This document shows, piece by piece, positions 5,939-61,902 of a DNA stretch of 64,000 nucleotides. Source of the stretch: a virus. Taxonomy: Duplodnaviria; Heunggongvirae; Uroviricota; Caudoviricetes. The notes beneath the pieces were generated by a model that did not search any database, was not told the origin of the DNA, and worked only from the letters and a program-made list of their open reading frames with translations. Location of the stretch: the IMG/VR virus record IMGVR_UViG_3300033146_003879, positions 118,990 through 182,989 of that record; one strand, 5' to 3'. Position 1 is the stretch's first letter. Every line of letters begins with the position of its first letter. Made by a program: the position numbers and the translations under genes.

Positions 5939-6137
5939 GTTCCATCAAACATATGAATTATAGAGGAAAAAAAAGAACGCCTAATAGATAGGCGCTCTTG
6001 ATACTTGTTCTTACGTTAATCTGCGTTTCTGCCTTCGCAAAGAGCTGCGTGTAAGGCTTCCTTGCACACCGCATCAGATTCAGGGACTCACTTGGGCAAG
6101 GTGTACTCGCCGCAGTCCTGGAGTGTCCCTCTCTGTG

Positions 6138-7126
6138 TCCGGATATTATCCGGATACAACAAGTGAATTCTCGGTTCTAAAGTGCGCGCGCTGCAGGGAG
6201 CGCCGGCCTGATACGTAACCCGCATGCGCATTACGGGCAGTAATGGCTCTCTCGCAGCCTGGCGGGATCACGGGAGCAACGAAGGAGTGATCCCGCGGCT
6301 GTTCCCTAATGGTAAGTGCTGAAGCTGATATTATCAGCAGACAACCGATAAAAATTACAATCTGAAGTACATCTCCGGTTAAATGGATAGGCCCATACCA
6401 GGATAGTCACAGATCAGGATTCACGCGGTCTCGCGCGAAGCAAGAGTCCGTTTGAATCCTGACAGTGTTGCTGATATTATCAGCGAACATTGTAATCAAT
6501 TCATTAAACTCATCTAAAGAGATCTTACAGATCTCATCCGGTACCTGAAGACCCAGGTTAGTGAATTGTTCGGTTTCACGAAGGTTGAAGGGGGAAGCGG
6601 GATTGCTGCACGTTCAAGCGGATGACAAGCACTCCATCCTGCGGTCCCAACGGGACAAGCAGGCAGTGAGTGGTTGCAGCGTGCTTGAACTAAGCTGGCG
6701 CGACACCTTCCCTTCTGAAACAGCCACAATGAGCTAATTGGGTCTTGTATGAGTGCCGATATTATCAGCAAACATGAGTTCTTTCGTGTGCTTCTTCATC
6801 TAACACTTGGCGCCGCGGGTTACCATCCAGATAACCATCTGCTCCGCCGACTCGAGCTCTCCGAGGGATGCGTAGCAGAGTGAGTCGAGCTCTGGCGGGC
6901 GGCTCATTTTTCCGACATTATCGGAAGACATGAAGAAATAACTTTTGTACATTCGTCTAATGTAGAATCACCGCGCAATTGCAGCCCGGGAACTAGTGTG
7001 ATCGCTGCAAGCATCTCATGAACACCTTCTGTGTGCCGGTCAAGCGCGTAGGCAGGAAATGGATTATTTTCTGTCCCAGCGCGTGAGGCGCACTGCAGGT
7101 GTATGTGATTTCCGATGTTATCGGAA
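6138..7126. repeat. six dispersed 15-17 bp inverted repeats with an ATATTAT centre inside a 1.2-kb GC-rich non-coding island
   Basis: Copies at 6138-6154 tccggatattatccgga, 6324-6338 gctgatattatcagc, 6470-6484 gctgatattatcagc, 6755-6769 ccgatattatcagc, 6910-6926 ttccgacattatcggaa, 7110-7126 ttccgatgttatcggaa. Each copy is followed by an ACA(T)G(A) tract. No ORF longer than 85 aa is present, and those that exist lack an RBS. Confidence 0.7.
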
Positions 7127-7149
7127 TGCATGAATGTATATTTTGTCAA

Positions 7150-7165
7150 CTTCTTATACCATAAT
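7150..7165 (-). promoter_or_regulatory. copy 1 of recurrent promoter-like motif (plus strand cttataccataat; minus strand reads TGGTATAAG, an extended -10)
   Basis: Member of the 14-copy motif family. Oriented so that minus-strand transcription would enter the 5940-7150 non-coding island. Confidence 0.4.
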
Positions 7166-7177
7166 AATAATGGAGTT

Positions 7178-24158: not shown

Positions 24159-24499
24159 TGGTGGAGGCGGCGGGAATCGAACCCGCGTCCTAAAAACCTT
24201 CAAGATAGATACTACATGTTTAGTCCGTCTTTACTAAAATCTTCGGCGCCAACGGACAGGCCCCTCGAAGTTTCCTACGCTAAAGTTTTCGTGGCATCTC
24301 CCACATAGAAAGGATCAACCCTTAGTCTCACAGTTGTGCGCCCCAATTGGTGTCGTGAGCACCCCTCCAATAGGACGGCAGCTTATGCTGCTATGAGTTC
24401 AGTTTTTGCGTCTCTGAACGTGCCGCTTTTTACGAGGCCCGCGGCGCCTCGACATGCATCTATTCTCTCCGCGAATCCAGTCGAAACCAGGTCGCCCCC
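24159..24499 (-). ncRNA. ssrA: tmRNA (ssrA-like), about 341 nt, phage-encoded
   Basis: Minus strand reads 5' GGGGGCGACCUGGUUUCGACUGGAUUCG ... GGACGCGGGUUCGAUUCCCGCCGCCUCCACCA 3'. The 7-bp acceptor stem (GGGGGCG / CGCCUCC) carries a G3.U pair. T-arm GCGGG-UUCGAUU-CCCGC with terminal CCA. Internal putative tag frame ends ...ACU GAA CUC AUA GCA GCA UAA (TELIAA*). Confidence 0.8.
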
Positions 24500-29992: not shown

Positions 29993-30367
29993 TTACTGAT
30001 TCTTAATGTATGTCTTGATGACTTCGAGCGGTGCGCCGCCAGAAGACGTAACGTAATAAGACGGGGACCATAATTTCTTGTGCCGTCTTAATTCCGGGTA
30101 TAAAGCTCTGAGCTTTTTGCTTGTTGGCCCCTTAACTGCCTGCACTATAGAGGAGATTGACTCTGTCGAAGGGTATTCAATAAGGAGGTGGACGTGATCT
30201 AAATCGCCGTTACATTCCTCAAGCGTGATCCCCTTCTTCTTGAACGCCTGTCTTGCATAATATGCGAAGTCTCCAAGTATTCTCGGAGAAAGCACCTTTC
30301 TCCTATACTTCGTTACCAATACGAGGTGTGCATGCAAGCTGCTTATGTTTGTTCTTGACTTCCTCAT
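29993..30367 (-). CDS. tnpA: IS200/IS605 Y1 (HUH) transposase TnpA
   Basis: LHAHLVLVTKYRRKVL ... DHVHLLIEYP (HuH) ... LWSPSYYVTS (catalytic Tyr). Confidence 0.85.
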   Translation of the reverse strand: MRKSRTNISSLHAHLVLVTKYRRKVLSPRILGDFAYYARQAFKKKGITLEECNGDLDHVHLLIEYPSTESISSIVQAVKGPTSKKLRALYPELRRHKKLWSPSYYVTSSGGAPLEVIKTYIKNQ

Positions 30368-30389
30368 AACCCTAAGTATACTCTTTTGT

Positions 30390-31508
30390 ATGAAAGTGTC
30401 AAGAGCATATAAATACCGCCTTTACCCTACGCGAGAACAAGAGATTAAGTTGTCTCAGTTCGTTGGAAACAATAGATATCTCTGGAACTTCGTTCTATCC
30501 GCTCTCGAAGGCAAGAAGTGGGACCGATTCGCTGTTTCCAAACAACTTCCTTCACTTAAGTCTGAAATACCATTCCTTAAAGAATCTCCGTCTCAAGCGT
30601 TTCAACAATTGTTAATTGATATGGATGCTGCATTTAAGAGCTTCTTTCGGAAGAAACACGGATATCCGAAGTTTAAGAAACGCGGTATGCACGACTCTTT
30701 TAGAATACCGGTTGTGAAGTCCCCTGAATCTATAAACAAGAATAGCTGCGTCTGGATACCAAAATTGGGTTTTGTGGAACTGCGTTTGTCGCGTGAGGTG
30801 AGAGGAGAAGCGAAGTCTATCACTGTGTCTCGGAGAGCGGGAAAATGGTTTGTCTCAATATTGACGAAAAGCGAGATGCAGGAAACAGGCGGAAAGACAG
30901 GAAATAGTGTAGGAATTGATCTCGGCGTTAAACACTTCGCGACAACGTCGGGCGGAAAGCATATACATGCTCCAGAGGAAAGAGTGCGCTATTTAGAGAA
31001 GAGAATAGAGCGCATGCAGAGGAAAGTCAGTAGAGCGAAGAAAGGATCAAGCAACAGAAGCAAGTTGCGTCTTAAATTAAGTAGACTCCACTTAACTCTC
31101 GCGAATGTGAAAGAAGACTTCTTGCACAAGGTGAGCACACAGTTAATCAAGAACCACGATTTACTTGTGCTCGAAGACCTTGGTGTAAAGGAGATGACAG
31201 AAGCAGGAGCGAGAAAAGCGAAGTTAAATAGAGCAATCTTGCGTCAAGGTTGGTATAAATTTAGGACTTTACTTGAGTATAAGAGTATGTGGTATGGCTG
31301 TGCCGTAGTGTTCGTCCCGCCTCAATTCACGAGTCAGCGCTGTAGCGAATGCGGGAATATAAACGCAGCAAACAGAAAGACACAATCGTCATTTAAATGC
31401 CTTTCGTGTGGCCATACTGAAAACGCTGATATAAACGCAGCTAAGAACATTTTCACCGTCGGGCAGACGGGTAGAGCCTTTGGAGACGCCGCGCTAGCGG
31501 GTCGATGA
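30390..31508 (+). CDS. tnpB: TnpB (OrfB, RuvC-like, RNA-guided nuclease family)
   Basis: N-terminus KVSRAYKYRLYPTREQ, GIDLGVKHFATTSGG (RuvC-I), C-terminal zinc finger CSECG...CLSCGH, DINAAKNI. Confidence 0.85.
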   Translation: MKVSRAYKYRLYPTREQEIKLSQFVGNNRYLWNFVLSALEGKKWDRFAVSKQLPSLKSEIPFLKESPSQAFQQLLIDMDAAFKSFFRKKHGYPKFKKRGMHDSFRIPVVKSPESINKNSCVWIPKLGFVELRLSREVRGEAKSITVSRRAGKWFVSILTKSEMQETGGKTGNSVGIDLGVKHFATTSGGKHIHAPEERVRYLEKRIERMQRKVSRAKKGSSNRSKLRLKLSRLHLTLANVKEDFLHKVSTQLIKNHDLLVLEDLGVKEMTEAGARKAKLNRAILRQGWYKFRTLLEYKSMWYGCAVVFVPPQFTSQRCSECGNINAANRKTQSSFKCLSCGHTENADINAAKNIFTVGQTGRAFGDAALAGR

Positions 31509-32180: not shown

Positions 32181-32598
32181 TCTTCTCCTCCCATTTTCTC
32201 AACTGTTTCATCAAACTTCCATCAACATCAAGGCGTCCGTCACCCATGGGATTTCCAAAACTGAACCACCCACCATCGACGGTACGAGTAAATGTTAGCG
32301 GGGTATTTTCTTCATCATCCAGATGACCATATACTAGCACGTCAGTTTCCTTTGCATACAATCCCGAGCACTGGTCAACCTCTTGTTTCCACAGCTCTCT
32401 CAGATCCTTTCGCGCGGTATTAAAGGAAGCAACGGTTTGTATATAGGCCCGGTTGTGCCGGGTCATTTTGACCTTTCCGTCGTCGAAGAAGTCATACTCC
32501 TCCCCTACCAACGGGACAGGCATTAATTTTCTAACTCCCATAGTGTTCCCCTCCATCTCCGTGGTTAGTAACAGCCGCTCTAATACCCTCTGCGACAC
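32173..32598 (-). CDS. hypothetical protein (141 aa); part of it is duplicated at 34156-34400
   Basis: PLVGEEYDFFDDGKVKMT...SGLYAKETDVLVYGHLDDEE recurs in the downstream ORFs. Confidence 0.4.
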   Translation of the reverse strand: MSQRVLERLLLTTEMEGNTMGVRKLMPVPLVGEEYDFFDDGKVKMTRHNRAYIQTVASFNTARKDLRELWKQEVDQCSGLYAKETDVLVYGHLDDEENTPLTFTRTVDGGWFSFGNPMGDGRLDVDGSLMKQLRKWEEKSG

Positions 32599-33511
32599 TT
32601 CCGATAGCTATAACACCATCGATAAGGAGCATGCCGAGATGAATTAGTGTTTTAACGCTATCATGCTGTACCCCAGACACAGGTAAAGAAGGGTTAACCT
32701 CTTTCCCTGACACCGCGAGCTTCCCATCGTCTGCCGCAGAGAATTCAACATCAACAAGAATATCTTTGACACCCTCTCGAACAGAGTCAAGAACAGCAGG
32801 ATCTTTGATAAACAACTCAACATCCTTTCTTGTAGCGGGAACAGGCTCCATATCCCACTCTTCAATGATATTCCTCTCCGGCTTTATCTTAACCATGATA
32901 CGCTTACCACTTCTGGTGAGCATACCAAGAGGCGCCTTCAATACGACACCTTCTGCGGGATACTCTTTGTTCTCCGCAATTAACGACTTGAAGTCGTTGT
33001 TGACCAGGGCATCTGCTTCGGCAAGACTCATGTTTCCGAGAAACGGAACAACAAGAATCCCTATACGGGCCGCAATGTTTTCTATATCTTTTCTCTGCAA
33101 CCACCAGCCCCCTACACGAATATCAAACAGAATGAAGGACACATCTTTCTTTATGTAGTTCCCTCCTTTCTGAATCTTCACACCATACCCTTCTCCATAG
33201 AGACAGACGACCTGTCCACCCTCAAGAGTAAACCCTTTCTTAAGAGTCTCCGGAGTAAACAACTCATGCAGCTTCTTGTCAAGGTGCCCCGGCAAGATAG
33301 CTTTATCCGTCTTACCCCGGATATCGACTTTCTCTCCATCCCAGATAACACGAATGTTCGTGCCGTCTATTTTCTCTGTTGCTTCCCACAGGGCGTTCTC
33401 GAGTACCTCAAATTCAGGCATTGCGTACGCGCCTCTTATGAGAGGCTTATTTTTCATATGCATAGCCCTCTTCCACAAAGAGTTTATCTTTGTATACTTT
33501 CCTCCGTTCAT
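32531..33511 (-). CDS. ATP-dependent RNA ligase, Rnl2-like
   Basis: Motif I EKIDGTN (compare T4 Rnl2 EKIHGTN), motif IV EGVVLK, motif V IMVKIKPE. Start MNGG is preceded by GGAGGGAGAAGG. Confidence 0.7.
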   Translation of the reverse strand: MNGGKYTKINSLWKRAMHMKNKPLIRGAYAMPEFEVLENALWEATEKIDGTNIRVIWDGEKVDIRGKTDKAILPGHLDKKLHELFTPETLKKGFTLEGGQVVCLYGEGYGVKIQKGGNYIKKDVSFILFDIRVGGWWLQRKDIENIAARIGILVVPFLGNMSLAEADALVNNDFKSLIAENKEYPAEGVVLKAPLGMLTRSGKRIMVKIKPERNIIEEWDMEPVPATRKDVELFIKDPAVLDSVREGVKDILVDVEFSAADDGKLAVSGKEVNPSLPVSGVQHDSVKTLIHLGMLLIDGVIAIGSVAEGIRAAVTNHGDGGEHYGS

Positions 33512-33524
33512 CCTTCTCCCTCCT

Positions 33525-33806
33525 CTAAACACTATCAATAAACTTGAGAAGCTCCTCTTTCTTTTTCTTGACCTCTGGAGTCAGTTCCACCTCGTGTCTC
33601 CTGATCCTCGGGAACACACCGTACTCATCTTCATAGATACTATACATTATACCCAGACCTACAGCAGGCTCTACGTATCCAAACAGATGAGAAGGCAGGG
33701 ATAACGTCACTTTCCCAAACCTAACGGAAACGAACTCGTCACTGTACGAAACTATTACACCTGACTTCTCTGCTATCAGGTTAATCATCTGCTTTCCCGT
33801 CCACAA
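33525..33806 (-). CDS. hypothetical protein (93 aa)
   Basis: ORF. Confidence 0.35.
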   Translation of the reverse strand: MWTGKQMINLIAEKSGVIVSYSDEFVSVRFGKVTLSLPSHLFGYVEPAVGLGIMYSIYEDEYGVFPRIRRHEVELTPEVKKKKEELLKFIDSV

Positions 33807-46594: not shown

Positions 46595-46633
46595 CACCCT
46601 CCTATAATTTACACAGAATAGATGGAGGGTAAT

Positions 46634-47506
46634 ATGGGAAGCTTTCTTAAGTATGCTAAATTAATGCTCGACATAAATATCGGAGATATTATGTTAACCG
46701 GTCGATTCAAGAATCACCGCGAGGTAGTAAAAACAATGGGTACTGACGAGCTTGGGCAGCCACTGATAAATGGGAAGAAACTACTTGATATGCGCATCGA
46801 GAAGAAACTCCCTTTTGAGAAGAGAAGTAAGAAGACAAAGGAAGAGTCAGGAAAGAGTGTAAAGAAGTTCAGTAAGAAAGCGGACCAAAAGTCAATGGTG
46901 ATAGACGGCGACAAGATACAAGGCGTAGGCATGAGAAGAACACTGCATGACTATCTTGATGAAAAAGGAATTAAAGGCGTTGCTGTTAATGATGCGAAGA
47001 CCGGGAATGTCGAGGTGACTGTAGATGCCCCAACAAAAGACGATGCGGTGCGCGCTCTTGAAGAACTAAAGGTGATCGCAAACAACCGTGTTGGTGAACC
47101 GCTGCGCTACAATATGCCTAAGCGTCCTCTACCGTTACGGGACGCAGTAATAACAAACGAGGACATGGAGCGGTTCAACACAAAGTCATACGAAAGCTTT
47201 CTCCGATCACGTAAGCTTCATCCTGAAATGCGGTTCTCAACAGGTAGACTTCCGCTTGAAGATGTCATAAGGGAAACAGCAGAACGCTATCGACTACAGC
47301 GCGGAGAAGGTGATGTTGCCTTGCAAGGACTCGTCACAGCAAGAGCATTACGGCAACTCCTAAACAAGGAAACACAATACGAATTCATGCGTAGAGAGAA
47401 CCTTGTTCGCAGTAAAGCCGAGGGGTATGCGTTACTCGCTAAGATAAAAGCGATGCGTGAGGCAAATGGAAGAGGAGACGACACCGACTGGCCATCAAAA
47501 AAATAA
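46634..47506 (+). CDS. protein with acylphosphatase-like domain
   Basis: IDGDKIQGVGMRRTLHDYLDEKGIKGVAVNDAKTGNVEVTV matches the acylphosphatase V-x-G-x-VQGV-x-FR signature. GGAGGG RBS. Confidence 0.45.
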   Translation: MGSFLKYAKLMLDINIGDIMLTGRFKNHREVVKTMGTDELGQPLINGKKLLDMRIEKKLPFEKRSKKTKEESGKSVKKFSKKADQKSMVIDGDKIQGVGMRRTLHDYLDEKGIKGVAVNDAKTGNVEVTVDAPTKDDAVRALEELKVIANNRVGEPLRYNMPKRPLPLRDAVITNEDMERFNTKSYESFLRSRKLHPEMRFSTGRLPLEDVIRETAERYRLQRGEGDVALQGLVTARALRQLLNKETQYEFMRRENLVRSKAEGYALLAKIKAMREANGRGDDTDWPSKK

Positions 47507-48016
47507 ATAACGCCACCACCACAGTATGCGGGAATGGGGCACTATCAATGCATAACAACAGCTGTCTTCAGCCAATCGCTCCAAACCGCTACGCCGTGAA
47601 GGCTCGGTGGATTGAGATGTTATGCATTGATAGTTGCACACCAGATTTGATTTTTACTTCCAGTTTTCTCTGGAACCCAAGTTTCACCACTGCCTCCTGT
47701 GTGGATCCCCCGGGGAGCAACTCTTGTTTATCCCGGCGTCGCAGTGCTATCGCGACGGAGCACACCCTCTGTTTTTAAGTGGTATCGGGTGCTCCCTTCC
47801 ACTGGTTATTGATGGCTGTTCGCGCAGCTCGGGATGTGAGTCCCGCCATCTAGGTATGGCAATCGTCACCCTAACCACCCTACTTACCGCGAGGTGGAAG
47901 CGTCTGACAGTTTTCACTGTCGGTCGGGTGCTAACTAACGTGTTCGACCATTACGCTCGCATAGTTTTCCATCTATACGAGTATGACGTATACATCGGGA
48001 GTATACTTCATATCAT

Positions 48017-48032
48017 ATTCTTATACCACAGA
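48017..48032 (-). promoter_or_regulatory. recurrent promoter-like motif, copy 7
   Basis: catattcttataccacagaatacgattttttgcagg. Confidence 0.45.
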
Positions 48033-48083
48033 ATACGATTTTTTGCAGGGTATTTAGGGCGGATCTATCTGGAACCCGGATCG

Positions 48084-48136
48084 AAAAAAATATACTTACT
48101 CCCAGGGGACACCGCTCGTCAGCGGCTACCCCTGGT
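48084..48136 (-). terminator. rho-independent terminator (ccaggggacaccgctcgtcagcggctacccctgg plus U7 on minus)
   Basis: Long GC hairpin. Minus strand continues GAGUAAGUAUAUUUUUUUCG. Confidence 0.55.
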
Positions 48137-48378
48137 TTCAGGCACCCCTCTACAACTAGGCTCTAGCCTAGACCAATACCCTTGAGGGGAAAGTATATTG
48201 GTCACCGCGTTTCTTTTTACCCATGAGGCTCGCGGCTAGCCTCTGCGGATGACCTTTCTCAAGGCTCCGCTTCCTTTATTCTCTTCATGATCTCTGCACC
48301 TCCCAGTGCTTGCCCGGTGACCAACCCGGATAATGGCCAATAGTATCCCGGCTGCCTGGCAGGGATACTTCATATCAT
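48084..48378 (-). ncRNA. candidate about 290-nt structured ncRNA bounded by a promoter (48379-48394) and a terminator (48084-48136)
   Basis: No ORF with an RBS. GC-rich, with multiple hairpins. Discrete promoter-to-terminator unit on the minus strand. Confidence 0.3.
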
Positions 48379-48394
48379 GTTCTTATACCATAGA
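48379..48394 (-). promoter_or_regulatory. recurrent promoter-like motif, copy 8
   Basis: catgttcttataccatagaatcacagtttttgcagg. Confidence 0.45.
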
Positions 48395-48605
48395 ATCACA
48401 GTTTTTGCAGGTGCCTATCTGGAAGCCGAAAAAAGAAACGCACTGCTGAGTACTACGCAGTTTGTTCCTTTTACCACGTGGCGTTCGTGGATTTGTGCAT
48501 CGTCTTTTCTATGTACTACGGGGCGGATTGCAGTTCCCCTCATGTCTATTTATATTTTGTTTTACATCAGCGCCAACACGGCGAGCGCTGATAGACGGCC
48601 AAGGC

Positions 48606-49115
48606 TCAACCCACAGGAGGAGTAGAGACGATAGGTCCGTAGTAGACCCACACCTCATGATATGAGCCCACTATGCTCACACCATACTCCACACCATACT
48701 CCTTGCTAAGGTCCGCCTTAATCTCCTCGAGATCAGGGTACCCATTCACAGGAGCATCTGTGCAGTGATCTGCTACTTGGTAGTAGATGTCACCCTCTAC
48801 ATCGTAGAGTTTGCCACTTACCTCGCAGATCTTGAGATCAGACAGACTGATGTCTTTGGCATGAAGGTCCACCAGAAGTGCGTATGCACCTCTCGAGTAC
48901 TTCAATGCGTCAGCATCAGATGTCCCTTTATCAACAATACCCTTATCACGGGCACAGTCGAGTATAAGGGCAGCACCGATACGGTGCATGTCCGCTAGGC
49001 CCTCATGCAGAATCTTTGCTGCACGAACACCCAGGATCTCATTCTTGTAGTCACGTACCGTTGCGACGTACTCCCAAACGGAGCGTCGAACGATAGAACC
49101 ACAAGCCTCCACCAT
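48606..49115 (-). CDS. hypothetical protein (169 aa)
   Basis: ORF. Confidence 0.45.
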   Translation of the reverse strand: MVEACGSIVRRSVWEYVATVRDYKNEILGVRAAKILHEGLADMHRIGAALILDCARDKGIVDKGTSDADALKYSRGAYALLVDLHAKDISLSDLKICEVSGKLYDVEGDIYYQVADHCTDAPVNGYPDLEEIKADLSKEYGVEYGVSIVGSYHEVWVYYGPIVSTPPVG

Positions 49116-49518: not shown

Positions 49519-50367
49519 CTAGGTTTGTGGCAACGCTTCCGTCACCAGTTTTTTGTACTCCGATTCATCAGACGGGATGAAGTTCAACAAGAATCCGCCC
49601 TTATGGGCGAACACAAGGTTCTTCGGTCTTGACTTCACAAAGTCGAGACCAGCGTCCTCTCCTTGCCGGGTTCGGAACAGGGTGCGTGTCTTGCCGGCGA
49701 GGTCACGAGGATCAAACGAGTATGTTGCAACTGCATCATACTTGTTGATTAACTCCCCTTGGGCCGCGTTCACGACTGCTGTCTCAAGCCCTGCGGCTCT
49801 CGGGTTAGACAACAATTCAATGACCGCATGCCCACCGACGGTAACAACAGCGTGGTTCTCCTCCAACCACGCCCCTGCCTCCTTTACGGAGCGCATGAAC
49901 TCGAGGCGATCTTTCACGATCTCCCCTACAAGCCCTGCGACATCCGTCGGCGCATGCTCGAAGAGTCGGATAAGCCCGAACTCGAGCGTGAGCAGCGGAG
50001 CCACTCTGTTCCCGCCAAACTCCGCGTCCAACGAACGGAGGCCGCCGTTATCTTGAATCTCGACTAGCTTCAAGAACGGACCCCATACGGAGTCCTTGAG
50101 AAGATCTGGAGCAAACGCCTGGGAGATCAGAGTCGCCGCGCATTCGCCTGCAACAGCAGCCTCCTTTTGATGATGATCAAACAGACGGACTCCGTCATAC
50201 TGACCACCTACGTCGAGGATATAATCCTCGTCGCCGGTGGGGTTATTCGTACGAATTACTTCATACGAACCTTGGTACCACCCTTTTGCCGCGATGAGTA
50301 TGCCTGCGGCAAGCAGGTCATCCTTGTGTGCGGCCCCGGCATGGACCGCAATAATTATTTTCTTCAT
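49519..50367 (-). CDS. putative metal-dependent hydrolase (H-x-G-x-x-H-x-DD N-terminal motif plus DHHQ); family assignment tentative (MYG1/UPF0160-like?)
   Basis: IIAVHAGAAHKDDLLAAGIL ... LFDHHQ. GGAGG RBS. Confidence 0.3.
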   Translation of the reverse strand: MKKIIIAVHAGAAHKDDLLAAGILIAAKGWYQGSYEVIRTNNPTGDEDYILDVGGQYDGVRLFDHHQKEAAVAGECAATLISQAFAPDLLKDSVWGPFLKLVEIQDNGGLRSLDAEFGGNRVAPLLTLEFGLIRLFEHAPTDVAGLVGEIVKDRLEFMRSVKEAGAWLEENHAVVTVGGHAVIELLSNPRAAGLETAVVNAAQGELINKYDAVATYSFDPRDLAGKTRTLFRTRQGEDAGLDFVKSRPKNLVFAHKGGFLLNFIPSDESEYKKLVTEALPQT

Positions 50368-52311: not shown

Positions 52312-52505
52312 TACGCCGCCCTCCTTTATAAAAATTAAAGTACCTCATGCAGGTTGACCCTCTCCTGGTTGGGAGGGGTCGGTGTCCTGCACTAACCGTA
52401 TTAACTGACGGCTAACAGCGCGATAGATTAACTGCTATCACTGGTGATGCTTTCGCTGACGGAGTCACTTACCCGGGCCCTTTACGTCTAGCCGTAGACG
52501 GGTTA

Positions 52506-52676
52506 TTATTTTACATCCAGTATGCTCTGGAGTGTTGGGCGAACGCCCCGGGCATGCTGAGCAGCATGGTAGATCCCACGACCTTTAGGAAGGCCGTACC
52601 TATTACGTACAACAGGTAAGCTGTTAGAAGTGGGGCTTGCACGCGGGGTTTCCCCCGTCATAAGTTCATAATACAT
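52506..52676 (-). CDS. small ORF (56 aa) with a strong RBS inside a long leader
   Basis: GGAGG + 7 nt + ATG. Leader and start are near-identical over about 50 nt to those of gene 49519..50367. Falls below the 60-aa ORF-track cutoff. Confidence 0.3.
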   Translation of the reverse strand: MYYELMTGETPRASPTSNSLPVVRNRYGLPKGRGIYHAAQHARGVRPTLQSILDVK

Positions 52677-52790
52677 AATAGTACCTCCTAAGTACCTTCC
52701 CGGCGACCAACCCGGATAATAGTCATCGCACCAACCACACGGTCAATACTTATAGGAGGTATGCTATTACATGCGCAAATCTCCTATCAT

Positions 52791-52806
52791 ATTCTTATAC
52801 CACAGA
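52791..52806 (-). promoter_or_regulatory. recurrent promoter-like motif, copy 11
   Basis: catattcttataccacagaatctgaatttttacact. Confidence 0.45.
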
Positions 52807-54787: not shown

Positions 54788-54848
54788 AATAAAACAACAA
54801 AACAACAAAACAACAAAGCAATAAAGCAATAAAGCAATAAAACAACAT
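54788..54848. repeat. short tandem repeats (aacaaaac)x3 followed by (caataaag)x3
   Basis: aaaacaacaaaacaacaaaacaacaaagcaataaagcaataaagcaataaaa, in a 1.1-kb non-coding stretch. Confidence 0.8.
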
Positions 54849-55648
54849 CGGCGCAGTCCCCTGAGTGTTCGGGGTACGTAGCGCCATGGTAGCATTTTTA
54901 ACCTTTCGGCCATTACACACACCCACATTTCTGTAGGTAGCCACCAGAAACACAGCAGATAAGTTCTGCCGCAAACTCCTGCGCTGCTCATCATAGGTTT
55001 CCTCTGCTAGCAACCCCTTTGGTAGGGTTCAACGACTCCCGCCGTTTATTGTCCAACATTTTCCGCCTCACAGTTCACCTTGTGGGATTCCTGCGTCATC
55101 ATTTTTCAGATGAATAAGTTTCTTTTCAGAATCAGCGCCTACACCGCTTTTTACCATTTGTTTTCTTGATTAATAGTCAAGTAGTTGATTTCGAGTCGCC
55201 GGTGTAGCCGATAACCTAGATGCCTTTTGAGCACCCGTGCGGTCCTACGCCTCGTTGTTTCAAGTTAGACCGGGTAAGGTCCTGAAACGGGAATCTTTTC
55301 TTGAACCGCGTGATTTCGCACGTGGCCCAAAAGTCCTTACGTAAAGCCCTTGCTCCTCAGCTCGAACAATACACAGTGCAACCCCCTATTGCCTCTCAGC
55401 TCACCTACCATACTACTGATAGGCATTACCACTTCTGCGCCGCCAGTTGGCCTTGCATTCCCGTGATAACGGTAGTTGTACTCCTCTCTACGGTCACGGT
55501 TTAACCCGCGCGCATCCGTGGTTCACTTTCCACTAAATGCCTTTTAGGCTCATCACTGAGCTTACCCTAACGACAAGAAGGCTGCCGTCGCAAAGATATA
55601 CGGTAGATGTTTCTAACTAGGTTAGCATACAAACATATACCTTTGCAA

Positions 55649-60499: not shown

Positions 60500-60868
60500 C
60501 TATCTTTTACCATCACCGCGTTTCTCTCGACGCCTGCGAGCTTTCTCTAACGCGTCATACCGCAAGTGATCTAGCTGGCACATAGCACGCAGCCTATCAT
60601 CAGCAACCTCTTCATTCTCTTCATCATGATCAAGGTGAGCAACAGTAAGCACCACCTTCACATCTTTCCCTTTGTCCCAAATATCATTGTCAATGTGAAG
60701 CTTATAGTGCATTGGTAACCACTGTCTAAATCCATCAGTCCCAATAACGCTGCGTACGGTATCCCCGTTCTCTAGCCCGCAAACTTCGCATCTATTGTTT
60801 GCGCGTTCCAGTATGCGTGCTCTTGTTTCCTTCCAGTCTTTTGGGTACCTATTGTAGTCAATTGGCAT
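60500..60868 (-). CDS. HNH endonuclease (start trimmed to MPIDYNRY)
   Basis: NRCEVCG ... VAHLDHDEENE ... LRAMCQLDH (C..C...H..H..N...C..H pattern). Confidence 0.6.
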   Translation of the reverse strand: MPIDYNRYPKDWKETRARILERANNRCEVCGLENGDTVRSVIGTDGFRQWLPMHYKLHIDNDIWDKGKDVKVVLTVAHLDHDEENEEVADDRLRAMCQLDHLRYDALEKARRRREKRGDGKR

Positions 60869-61469
60869 TCTTTCTGTCACTCCGGATGTGGTTGTACCAG
60901 GCCTCAATGATGTACGCGTCGTACAGTGAATTGTGTTTCTGCACCCCTCTCTCCTCGGCGTCGCCAAAGGTAGGTGTATGCAGGTCAACTACATCTTCCC
61001 GCGTGACATCGGGGTCGATGCCGGACATCTTCATAAGAGTAGCTATATCAAAGGGGATATAATATACTTGTTTCGGCAAGTTCGGGTAACCATTCTCGTA
61101 TGTTGCGAAGATCTTGTTGAATAACACCCAATCGTAAGCGAGGACATCGGACCACATCTCTACATCCTCTCCTGCTAGATCGTCACGCAGCCAGTACCCA
61201 AATGCATCACGTACTGTATCGGTATTTCCACACACTGTTGTGTGTACGCCATTCGTATGAACTCCTGAAGTGCCAACTCTTCCTAGAAGCGTAAGCTTAT
61301 CAAGTACGTTCTTTTGCAGCCAGTCATTTATATGGGACTTATCATAATCAGTGAACTCAGCGTAGAACGTGTGTCCTGTCTCCGATACGATACCTATAGA
61401 TATAGGCGTTGTGTCTTGTCTCAATCCAGTAAACTCCATATCAAAAAAAAGCTTAAGTCGCTCACTCAT
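60858..61469 (-). CDS. DnaQ-like DEDDh 3'-5' exonuclease
   Basis: Exo I LFFDMEFTGL. Exo III HNSLYDAYI. Start MSERLK after GGAGG. Confidence 0.7.
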   Translation of the reverse strand: MSERLKLFFDMEFTGLRQDTTPISIGIVSETGHTFYAEFTDYDKSHINDWLQKNVLDKLTLLGRVGTSGVHTNGVHTTVCGNTDTVRDAFGYWLRDDLAGEDVEMWSDVLAYDWVLFNKIFATYENGYPNLPKQVYYIPFDIATLMKMSGIDPDVTREDVVDLHTPTFGDAEERGVQKHNSLYDAYIIEAWYNHIRSDRKNAN

Positions 61470-61902
61470 TATCAAGTTCCTCCAAAGCAGACTCAAGCAC
61501 TCCTGTATAGACTTCTCCTGTAGCATTTCTCACAACAGTATAGGTAGCTGCATCTCGTGTGAACCGGATGGAACTGACGGTAACCTTGTGCCTCATCACA
61601 ATAGGAGGGTCACATGCTGCATCTACGTACACTAACTGCTGTACCTGGTTACCTACGCGAAACTTGTGAAGCAGTCCCCTACGAACAGGCGTGTCTCTGA
61701 CGTTTTCCACAGGAACAGAGTCGTGGGTTGTTTTTGGAGTACGAACGATATCCTCTTCTTTAAGTGTGCAGGTAGCTCCTGTATAATCAACTAGCTCGTA
61801 GAAGTTTGACACCCCGTCATAGACAATAAAGCATATTGTCCCTACGAAAGGTGAATACTGTTTTTGAACGACGTCATTAAATGAAAAAGAAGGTACATGC
61901 AT
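61462..61902 (-). CDS. hypothetical protein
   Basis: Start MHVPSF after GGAGG. Confidence 0.4.
   Translation of the reverse strand: MHVPSFSFNDVVQKQYSPFVGTICFIVYDGVSNFYELVDYTGATCTLKEEDIVRTPKTTHDSVPVENVRDTPVRRGLLHKFRVGNQVQQLVYVDAACDPPIVMRHKVTVSSIRFTRDAATYTVVRNATGEVYTGVLESALEELDNE

Follow-up and report, generated by a model that had tools for sequence, protein, structure and literature searches.

What does a phage encode in an interval of about 1.1 kb that offers no credible open reading frame? The interval considered here (47507-48605; 1099 nt, GC 0.50) is an ORF-free stretch at a convergent gene junction within the 64,000 nucleotides of viral DNA that were analysed, which we call the window. 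An initial annotation had described it as tandem promoter-to-terminator units on the minus strand and had proposed that these units are duplicated members of a family of structured non-coding RNAs. We examined the units, which we call B and C, for promoter and terminator signals, coding potential, folding and homologues, and we considered the genes and RNAs around them.

The window appears to come from a large phage that is an orphan in the databases. Its genes lie on the minus strand almost throughout, and most of their products are ORFans. Among the window products that could be recognised are an RNA ligase, an RNase H and a weak head-protease-like match, along with HNH endonucleases and an IS605-type TnpB (30345-31508, the sole TnpB in the window). 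An NAD-dependent DNA ligase has its best tblastn matches, within the phage collection, in jumbo and other phages at 37-40% identity. Both genes flanking the interval found only singletons in a set of 5.8 billion protein clusters, all of them from one 182,989-bp JGI contig. No T4-like core gene was recognised among 30 window proteins scanned against PHROGs, and by its gene content the phage is not recognisably T4-like. A tmRNA is present in the window and tRNA genes are absent from it throughout; neither kind of gene occurs in the 1.1-kb region. RNA-handling enzymes, the RNA ligase and a MYG1-like exonuclease, are encoded alongside the RNA genes, and the MYG1-like gene lies a short way upstream of the interval.

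Putative promoter cassettes of the interval

The window has three long gaps: the 1099-nt interval, an interval of 1253 nt (GC 0.46) that holds a GOLLD RNA (discussed below), and the interval 5939-7177 (1239 nt, GC 0.49), which is a 1.2-kb array punctuated by hairpins. The GC content of the 1099-nt interval matches that of the short tmRNA gap (401 nt, GC 0.49), while several ordinary gaps have 36-39% GC. The main landmarks of the interval and its edges are these:

46622..47506, plus strand: the convergent gene at the junction
48018-48048 and 48380-48410, minus strand: promoter-like motif copies (48048-48018 and 48410-48380), one heading each unit
48433..48605, minus strand: region A, by sequence and fold the 3' untranslated tail of the 169-aa gene (48606..49115)
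48380..48428, minus strand: cassette copy B, with spacer CGGCTTCCAGATAG, -35-like element CTGCAAAAA (48410-48402) and extended -10-like element TGGTATAAGAA (48390-48380)
48018..48078, minus strand: cassette copy C, with spacer GGGTTCCAGATAG (48065-48078), -35-like element CTGCAAAAA (48048-48040) and extended -10-like element TGGTATAAGAA (48028-48018)

Region A has a 9-bp hairpin (48592-48566) right after the stop codon of the 169-aa gene and a weak terminator of the A-tract/U-tract kind, which has GCGUUUCUUUUUU at its end (48441-48429). Its fold z-score is only -1.2, and coding signal is absent.

The motif CTGCAAAAA-N12-GGTATAAG matches the minus strand exactly at 48048-48020 and 48410-48382; with up to three mismatches allowed there are six matches in the window, against 0.19 expected. 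The description of two motif copies, each at the head of a GC-rich segment, thus holds, the GC content of the units and interval being 0.50-0.53 against about 0.45 for the whole window. The flanks said to be common to both units were also recovered, as a 70-nt direct repeat of 76% identity found by a repeat finder (47980-48049 and 48342-48411) and a repeat of CTATCTGGAASCCG (48065-48078 and 48415-48428). A 25-mer, GGTATAAGAANATGATATGAAGTAT, spans the -10-like element and the first transcribed bases and occurs only at these two promoters (0 expected), and the two cassette copies are 87% identical over 47 nt.

The cassette is not confined to the interval. Its -10-like core, [AT]GGTATAAG[AT]N, occurs in about 15 copies on the minus strand, mostly intergenic, against a chance expectation of about three over both strands combined. 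When eight copies are aligned, GGTATAAGAA is invariant, TGYAAAAA lies upstream of it and, a few bases past it, a TG is conserved. In three relatives (L001-L003, 62% amino-acid identity), TTATGGTATAAGA[AT]TATG is kept at the syntenic divergent-promoter position although the flanks have diverged. Because the cassette is over-represented, strand-biased, intergenic and conserved in syntenic position despite diverged flanks, we regard it as this genome's standard promoter-like element, probably read by a sigma-70-type polymerase through the extended -10-like element.

Several copies have more than the promoter in common. Those at 48382, 48020 and 52794 also share a preceding U-tract and a CGG..TTCCAGATAG spacer, so that the composite of U-tract, CGG..TTCCAGATAG and TGYAAAAA-N12-GGTATAAGAA is present at 48441-48380, 48090-48018 and 52860-52792. 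A downstream leader, UUAUCCGGGUUGGUCRCCGGG...GUACUUAGGAGGUAC...AUG, is common to the copies at 48382, 52794 and 50464. Protein genes are headed by the copies at 52794 (a 57-aa ORF), 50464 (the MYG1-like gene) and 49244 (the 169-aa gene). Units B and C would each be launched from their own copy of TGYAAAAA-N12-GGTATAAGAA, and the same cassette may drive the neighbouring protein genes and the GOLLD RNA.

It is here that the proposal of duplicated RNA genes has to be weighed. The 70-nt repeat includes the first 20 or so transcribed nucleotides, and both units start with a stem-loop built on a conserved GUAU, as duplicated members of one structured-RNA gene family might. The alignments contradict this interpretation, since similarity between B and C ends after the 5' stem-loop: what is alike is the terminator tail, the promoter and those first transcribed nucleotides, and beyond the cassette the bodies resemble neither each other nor the rest of the window, whether compared as DNA or by tblastx. 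The repeated part is, moreover, common to cassettes that head protein genes and GOLLD, and the two units differ in length (290 against 500 nt) and in predicted architecture. As judged from these comparisons, the sequence common to B and C is a reiterated cassette of terminator tail and promoter, in some copies with a leader, and not the core of an RNA gene. We therefore consider a duplicated family extremely unlikely.

Architecture and folding of units B and C

Both units are bounded by recognisable signals. The features of unit B are:

48378->48084, minus strand: unit B, a putative transcript of about 290 nt, its start placed from the promoter position
48368-48343, minus strand: 5' stem-loop
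48334-48298, minus strand: mRNA-type leader, common to the 52794 and 50464 genes
48303-48299, minus strand: Shine-Dalgarno sequence GGAGG
48288 to 48259, minus strand: ATG at 48288 and 9 codons (MKRIKEAEP), with the stop TGA at 48261-48259
between the ORF and the terminator hairpin, minus strand: unit B body, about 110 nt
48145-48092, minus strand: terminator hairpin, core 48135-48102, dG -31.2 kcal/mol, z -4.9, followed by U7 at 48090-48084

Those of unit C are:

48012->47497, minus strand: unit C, a putative transcript of about 500 nt, drawn from the promoter, hairpins and U-tract
48011-47983 and 47982-47955, minus strand: two 5' stem-loops
47955-47640, minus strand: GC-rich body with many short helices in the predicted fold
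47634-47541, both strands: 94-nt hairpin whose outer arms, 60 nt apart, pair perfectly over 17 bp
47540-47512, minus strand: terminal hairpin
47510-47497, minus strand: U-tract UUAUUUAUUUUUUU, overlapping the stop codon of the convergent plus-strand gene

Each unit is predicted to be Rho-independent. In unit B the promoter is followed by the strong terminator hairpin and an immediate U7, much as first described, the core lying one base from the position originally given; in unit C two hairpins lead into UUAUUUAUUUUUUU, and the U-tract puts the predicted end of this unit at the stop of the plus-strand gene. With a stem-loop at the 5' start and a hairpin and U-tract at the end, both units would be expected to yield discrete and fairly stable RNAs.

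The 94-nt hairpin of unit C folds on both strands (z -3.9 and -5.3), and since U-rich sequence follows it on both strands it is probably a bidirectional terminator, shared by unit C and the convergent gene 46622..47506. Such a symmetrical element also raises the question of a function at the level of DNA. In phage T7 the primary origin is one at which replication is primed from tandem promoters, and the interval might be a replication origin of that kind, or might carry protein-binding palindromes at the convergent junction. Tandem promoters that appear to transcribe ORF-free DNA, the 17-bp perfect inverted repeat and the equal folding of the two strands would fit such an element. We found, however, no AT-rich unwinding region (GC is above that of the genome), no iterons or repeated short motifs in the unit bodies and no inflection of cumulative GC skew beyond the effect of gene orientation, and a DNA-level element seems very unlikely.

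Unit B has features of an mRNA. Its Shine-Dalgarno sequence and ATG are intact, which suggests an mRNA origin, and the hairpin containing the Shine-Dalgarno sequence has undergone a compensatory change (GUAC/GUAC to GCAC/GUGC, one pair only). The reading frame that starts at the ATG has four in-frame stops in 70 codons. We also considered an "anti-leader" role, as CGGUGACCAA (48207-48198) is complementary to the conserved leader sequence UUGGUCACCG, but when the whole minus strand was scanned for duplexes with three leaders, the CGGUGACCAA segment of unit B was not among the best partners, and we rejected the idea. Unit B also holds AAAAAGAAACGC, which is complementary to the upstream terminator tail.

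To place the folding of the units on a scale, whole-unit z-scores were computed against dinucleotide shuffles, with 36 length-matched coding segments as controls:

unit B, whole: z -3.5 to -4.3
unit B, body between leader and terminator: z -1.1
unit C, whole: z -4.9 to -5.2
unit C, body without the terminal hairpins: z -3.6
GOLLD unit: z -4.1
tmRNA: z -1.3
36 coding controls: mean z -0.6, standard deviation 1.2, minimum -3.1

By this measure unit C is predicted to fold as strongly as the GOLLD unit does, and it falls beyond the range of the coding controls. In unit B the structure signal comes from the 5' hairpin and leader and from the terminator only, given the z-score of its body; this too speaks against the structured-RNA family first proposed. 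The plus strand folds almost as well as the minus strand in whole-unit z, and folding of a single sequence is in any case no evidence for conserved structure (PMC8250186). Whole-unit scores with coding controls were used in place of a 150-nt sliding scan, which we rejected as a discriminator because it is noisy: 5% of the whole window falls below z -3, the tmRNA goes undetected, and the adjacent coding region at 48.5-50.6 kb scores equally low.

Coding potential and possible small proteins

Coding potential was scored with a 3-periodic Markov model, for which 27 long ORFs of the window served as the training set. All ORFs in the span score negative, as do out-of-frame noise ORFs, against +92 and +33 bits for the two flanking genes. 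In sliding best-of-three-frame scores the medians are -6.7 for unit B and -7.2 for unit C (maximum +1.9), resembling the tmRNA and GOLLD controls; by the same score, small genes outside the training set reach a median of +9.4, with their 5th percentile at +1.0, and B and C fall below that percentile. No single stop-codon reassignment opens a frame in the 1.1-kb span. Its concatenated six-frame translation matched no protein at E <= 1 among the 5.8 billion clusters, a set that includes the called genes of the source contig itself. No pseudogene or paralogue remnants were seen, tblastx against the window giving cassette matches only. The span thus has neither genome-like coding statistics nor a protein homologue.

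The initial annotation was right that no ORF here is credible, none scoring as coding, although it erred in stating that the only ORFs are antisense and lack a ribosome-binding site. Sense-strand ORFs exist at 47589..47765, 47747..47917 and 48236..48373, and GGAGG is followed by a start codon twice in the sense orientation, at 48303 (ATG, 9 codons) and 47697 (GTG, 32 codons). It could be supposed, then, that unit B makes the 9-aa peptide MKRIKEAEP and that unit C is an mRNA with a long structured 5' UTR and a product of 32 aa (from GTG 47687) or 58 aa (47589..47765). The distance from GGAGG to the start codon, 10 nt for the ATG at 48288 and 5 nt for the GTG at 47687, is in favour of this, as is the 58-aa ORF, within which GGAGG-N5-GTG lies and which has the least negative score in the span (-1.5 bits, near the 92nd percentile of noise ORFs). 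On the minus strand, however, a GGAGG ahead of a start codon is no rarity by chance, and 87 of the 141 GGAGG motifs there have no start codon downstream that opens an ORF of at least 30 codons. The coding scores are at noise level, the six-frame search was empty, and the stop codon common to the 58-aa ORF and its 32-codon GTG version falls within the long terminal hairpin. An exhaustive HMMER search with the 58-aa ORF gave only a spurious multi-repeat match to an ankyrin-like protein of 1022 aa, and we rejected the ORF as a protein candidate. Translation of small proteins from B or C is accordingly an unlikely explanation of the interval.

Known RNA families, relatives and the origin of the units

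The initial annotation had suggested looking for GOLLD, ROOL, HEARO and similar RNAs, an apt idea for this phage, as a divergent GOLLD lies 6.8 kb from units B and C under the same promoter type. The GOLLD model (RF02032) has a full-length match at 54858-55252 with 63.3 bits (E = 7e-16 to 1e-15 in two local searches and 4e-14 over the whole window), which was missed at the default Rfam threshold because its score is below the gathering score of 150. The alignment retains the hallmark loops and helices, and on this sequence evidence we assign 54858-55252 as a divergent GOLLD RNA. The GOLLD unit is ORF-free and headed by TGGTATAAGTA at 55660-55650, and about 390 nt of variable sequence between promoter and match bring it to about 800 nt, from about 55643 to 54858. 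GOLLD RNAs are phage-borne, with a conserved 3' region and a variable 5' region, and many members exceed 800 nt (PMC12286853); a unit with a variable upstream part and a 3' match fits that description. Its promoter suggests that the genome uses the cassette for a large non-coding RNA, and thereby raises the prior that other promoter-headed, ORF-free units are RNA genes.

Units B and C themselves match no known family. A cmscan of 47300-48800 with Rfam 15 at E <= 10 found no GOLLD, ROOL (RF03087) or HEARO/omega RNA, returning only noise at E 0.78 to 8.5 (snoRNA, NEAT1, DUF805b), and Rfam at the gathering threshold over the whole window gave no match for either unit. No IscB or TnpB gene adjoins them. 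GOLLD and ROOL, which occur in phages and prophages, are large, ornate RNAs that assemble into nanocages made of RNA only (PMC12286853). Units B and C resemble them in being phage-encoded, hundreds of nucleotides long, ORF-free and GC-richer than their surroundings, and they have the promoter type in common with the GOLLD of this window. They differ in matching neither model at E <= 10, in being shorter (290 and 500 nt against about 580 to more than 800 nt) and in lying in a window with no tRNA genes. Phage small RNAs and small stable RNAs, such as T4 species 1 and 2 and prophage anti-sRNAs, are likewise discrete promoter-to-terminator non-coding transcripts made during infection, as B and C would be, although they are mostly shorter than 150 nt and base-pairing or tRNA-linked (for a review, see PMC12197685). 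Neither B nor C has extended or significant complementarity to other transcripts of the window.

No homologue of unit B or C was found by blastn against phage and plasmid sequences, in IMG/VR, in JGI metagenome contigs or in GTDB genomes. IMG/VR was scanned with both flanking proteins and the promoter pattern, and the metagenome contigs with two cassette patterns; the sole metagenome pattern match (L008) was an unrelated chance match. That blastn, the search of phage genomes proposed at the outset, gave no match is weak evidence, since it does not recover the GOLLD unit from the phage collection either. No close relative turned up in any of these collections.

The junction itself appears to vary. 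The nearest relatives of the plus-strand gene in the 5.8-billion-cluster protein set are 62-76% identical and lie on contigs of 1-4 kb. Searching that set with neighbouring proteins brought up distant relatives only, on contigs from which the region of B and C is missing. In these relatives the place of B and C is taken by a peptidase M15 gene convergent to the plus-strand gene, behind which come a 64-aa ORF and an HD-domain gene. As relatives carry protein genes instead of these units, the junction is a variable cargo site, or cargo-exchange hotspot, at which debris could accumulate.

A useful comparison is with a kind of repeat found in T4-type phages, the promoter-early stem-loop (PeSL) cassette, a composite of terminator and promoter through which modules are shuffled and indels arise (PMC2839356, PMC4122927). 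The cassette of B and C likewise joins a terminator tail, a conserved spacer and a promoter, and in some copies a leader; it recurs between genes on one strand, and the cargo at this locus differs between relatives. The motif here (TGYAAAAA / TGGTATAAGAA, with G at the last -10 position) departs from the T4-type early promoter consensus, however, and some of the cassettes here head ORF-free payloads. The relatives, at 62% amino-acid identity, have other genes at this junction, but they are distant and lie on contigs of 2-4 kb; a role of the cassette in recombination here would be conjectural.

This comparison brings in the main rival to our reading, namely that recombination between reiterated cassettes in a hyperplastic region left B and C behind as remnants of early-gene cassettes, decayed or truncated, which are still transcribed into RNAs that have no selected function. 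Unit B looks the part: it has the leader of a protein gene, a Shine-Dalgarno sequence and an ATG, yet ends after nine codons, and its body is unremarkable in its folding (z -1.1). Other protein-coding cargo at the same junction in relatives, and the indels mediated by PeSL composite cassettes in T4-type phages (PMC2839356, PMC4122927), would be in keeping with such an origin. Unit C is harder to reconcile with it, having no residual coding periodicity in any frame, no paralogue and no protein match, and being more structured than any of the 36 coding controls and GC-richer than the genome. The promoters, 5' stem-loops and terminators are intact in both units, and even in unit B the Shine-Dalgarno hairpin has its compensatory change, if of one pair only. 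We regard gene debris as possible for the two units together, though on balance doubtful.

The most likely reading, to which we would give roughly an even chance, is that the interval consists of two independent non-coding transcription units, of which C is a structured RNA and B is vestigial. The earlier interpretation survives in part, as non-coding promoter-to-terminator units on the minus strand are plausible while a duplicated structured-RNA family is not. Unit B would most likely be a vestigial or truncated cassette of the mRNA type, and its short RNA may have a role or none. Unit C, a credible orphan structured RNA on the basis of its modelled folding, would most likely be a stable and highly structured RNA of an undescribed class. 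Since it has no significant complementarity to other transcripts, it may work as a folded particle, be it as a binder or as a GOLLD-like scaffold, rather than as an antisense regulator.

For annotation, the lesson is that sequence common to ORF-free units can be a regulatory cassette and not a common RNA gene. Unit C is a singleton candidate, to be valued as a lead rather than a result, and possibly represents a new RNA class among the large non-coding RNAs encoded by phages. The genome offers candidate RNA classes together with a natural context of co-expression, in that GOLLD and at least one more long, strongly folding, ORF-free unit, presumably transcribed, have a common promoter type. More tentatively, and as something we would call possible rather than probable, unit C may be the first member of a new class of large, structured RNAs in phages, and may be co-expressed from GOLLD's promoter type in an unusually RNA-rich phage, in which RNA genes (the tmRNA, GOLLD, units B and C and the 1.2-kb hairpin array) would take up several kb of the 64-kb window. 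The GOLLD- and ROOL-type RNAs of phages are abundant, structurally spectacular and functionally unexplained, and if unit C does found such a class, this phage would allow the biology of GOLLD-type RNAs to be studied beside new partners.

Distribution of the promoter-like motif

The promoter-like motif, with consensus TGYAAAAA-N12-[AT]GGTATAAG[AT]N-NN-TG, occurs in about 15 copies in the window, in every case on the minus strand and for the most part between genes. The last position of its -10 hexamer is a G in place of the usually invariant T, and in about half of the copies a 5' stem-loop lies within 40 nt downstream. The contigs of three distant relatives (L001-L003) keep the motif at the syntenic site.

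Copies of the promoter-like motif (minus strand)
7161, 21169, 25425, 29903, 37831, 43793, 46590, 48028
48390, 49244, 50472, 52802, 54053, 55660, 60474

The GOLLD RNA unit and further ORF-poor segments

Two ORF-poor units and their elements are as follows.

~55660 to ~54790, minus strand: ORF-free unit containing a GOLLD match
54858-55252, minus strand: divergent GOLLD RNA (RF02032), 63.3 bits over the full model (1-416)
5960-7161, minus strand: ORF-poor 1.2-kb unit, starting with TGGTATAAGAA (7161-7151) and closing with a hairpin and T-run
7122, 6922, 6766, 6481, 6335 and 6150, minus strand: GATAAYRTC hairpins, spaced 146-285 nt apart

The match to GOLLD, a large phage RNA family, has an E-value of 7e-16 locally and 4e-14 when the whole window is searched, and because its score falls below the gathering score of 150, it is overlooked at the default threshold. 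The unit is headed by a promoter, TGGTATAAGTA at 55660-55650, of the type common to units B and C (the ORF-free promoter-to-terminator segments at the convergent junction), and its variable 5' sequence is about 390 nt long. No relative of the unit was found by blastn in the phage collection. At its 3' end (54790-54860, minus strand) lies a short, imperfect tandem repeat rich in T, ttgttttattgctttattgctttattgctttgttgttttgttgttttgttgttttatttttt.

The unit at 5960-7161 has no Rfam match and a fold z (folding energy against dinucleotide shuffles) of -7.1. Its six palindromic hairpins share the core GATAAYRTC and a single orientation, and compensatory changes are seen in their stems. Four of the six are preceded by an ATG, giving M-x-[SA]-D-N-[IV]-[GS]; the ORFs there are 13-75 aa long and lack GGAGG, and the coding score is confined to the first ~250 nt of the unit. 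The unit could be a processed precursor of multiple RNAs, or else a set of protein-binding palindromes.

At 52802 the cassette (the reiterated terminator-tail/promoter element) heads a segment spanning 52312-52792, with a 57-aa ORF on the minus strand (ATG at ~52675). Between this ORF and the next gene, about 220 nt (52312-52530, minus strand) are ORF-free and hairpin-rich, with z-scores of -3.2 to -3.6 in 150-nt windows, and may form a further structured element.

RNA-related genes and the TnpB insertion

RNA-handling enzymes are encoded near the RNA units, and a TnpB gene is inserted opposite to the prevailing gene direction. The phage carries its own tmRNA. No tRNA genes were found in the entire 64 kb window.

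24159-24499, minus strand: tmRNA (Rfam match of 173.6 bits; tag peptide AKTELIAA according to ARAGORN)
49519-50367, minus strand: MYG1-like exonuclease (PF03690 at 36 bits), located 1 kb upstream of unit B
32531-33538, minus strand: RNA ligase (phrog_548)
60858-61526, minus strand: RNase H (phrog_2259)
30345-31508, plus strand: IS605-type TnpB (Pfam OrfB_IS605, Cas12f1-like TNB, HTH_OrfB_IS605)

The convergent junction in relatives

Upstream of unit B, the gene for a 169-aa protein contains a perfect tandem duplication of 12 nt (CACACCATACTC twice, 48678-48701), which produces an EYGVEYGV repeat in the product. Relatives share 62% amino-acid identity in the plus-strand gene convergent to unit C. 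In L001 (2738-3908) and L002 (1243-2578), the place of units B and C at the junction is taken by genes for a peptidase M15 and an HD-domain protein, together with an ORF of 64 aa. The convergent junction holding units B and C is a variable cargo site.
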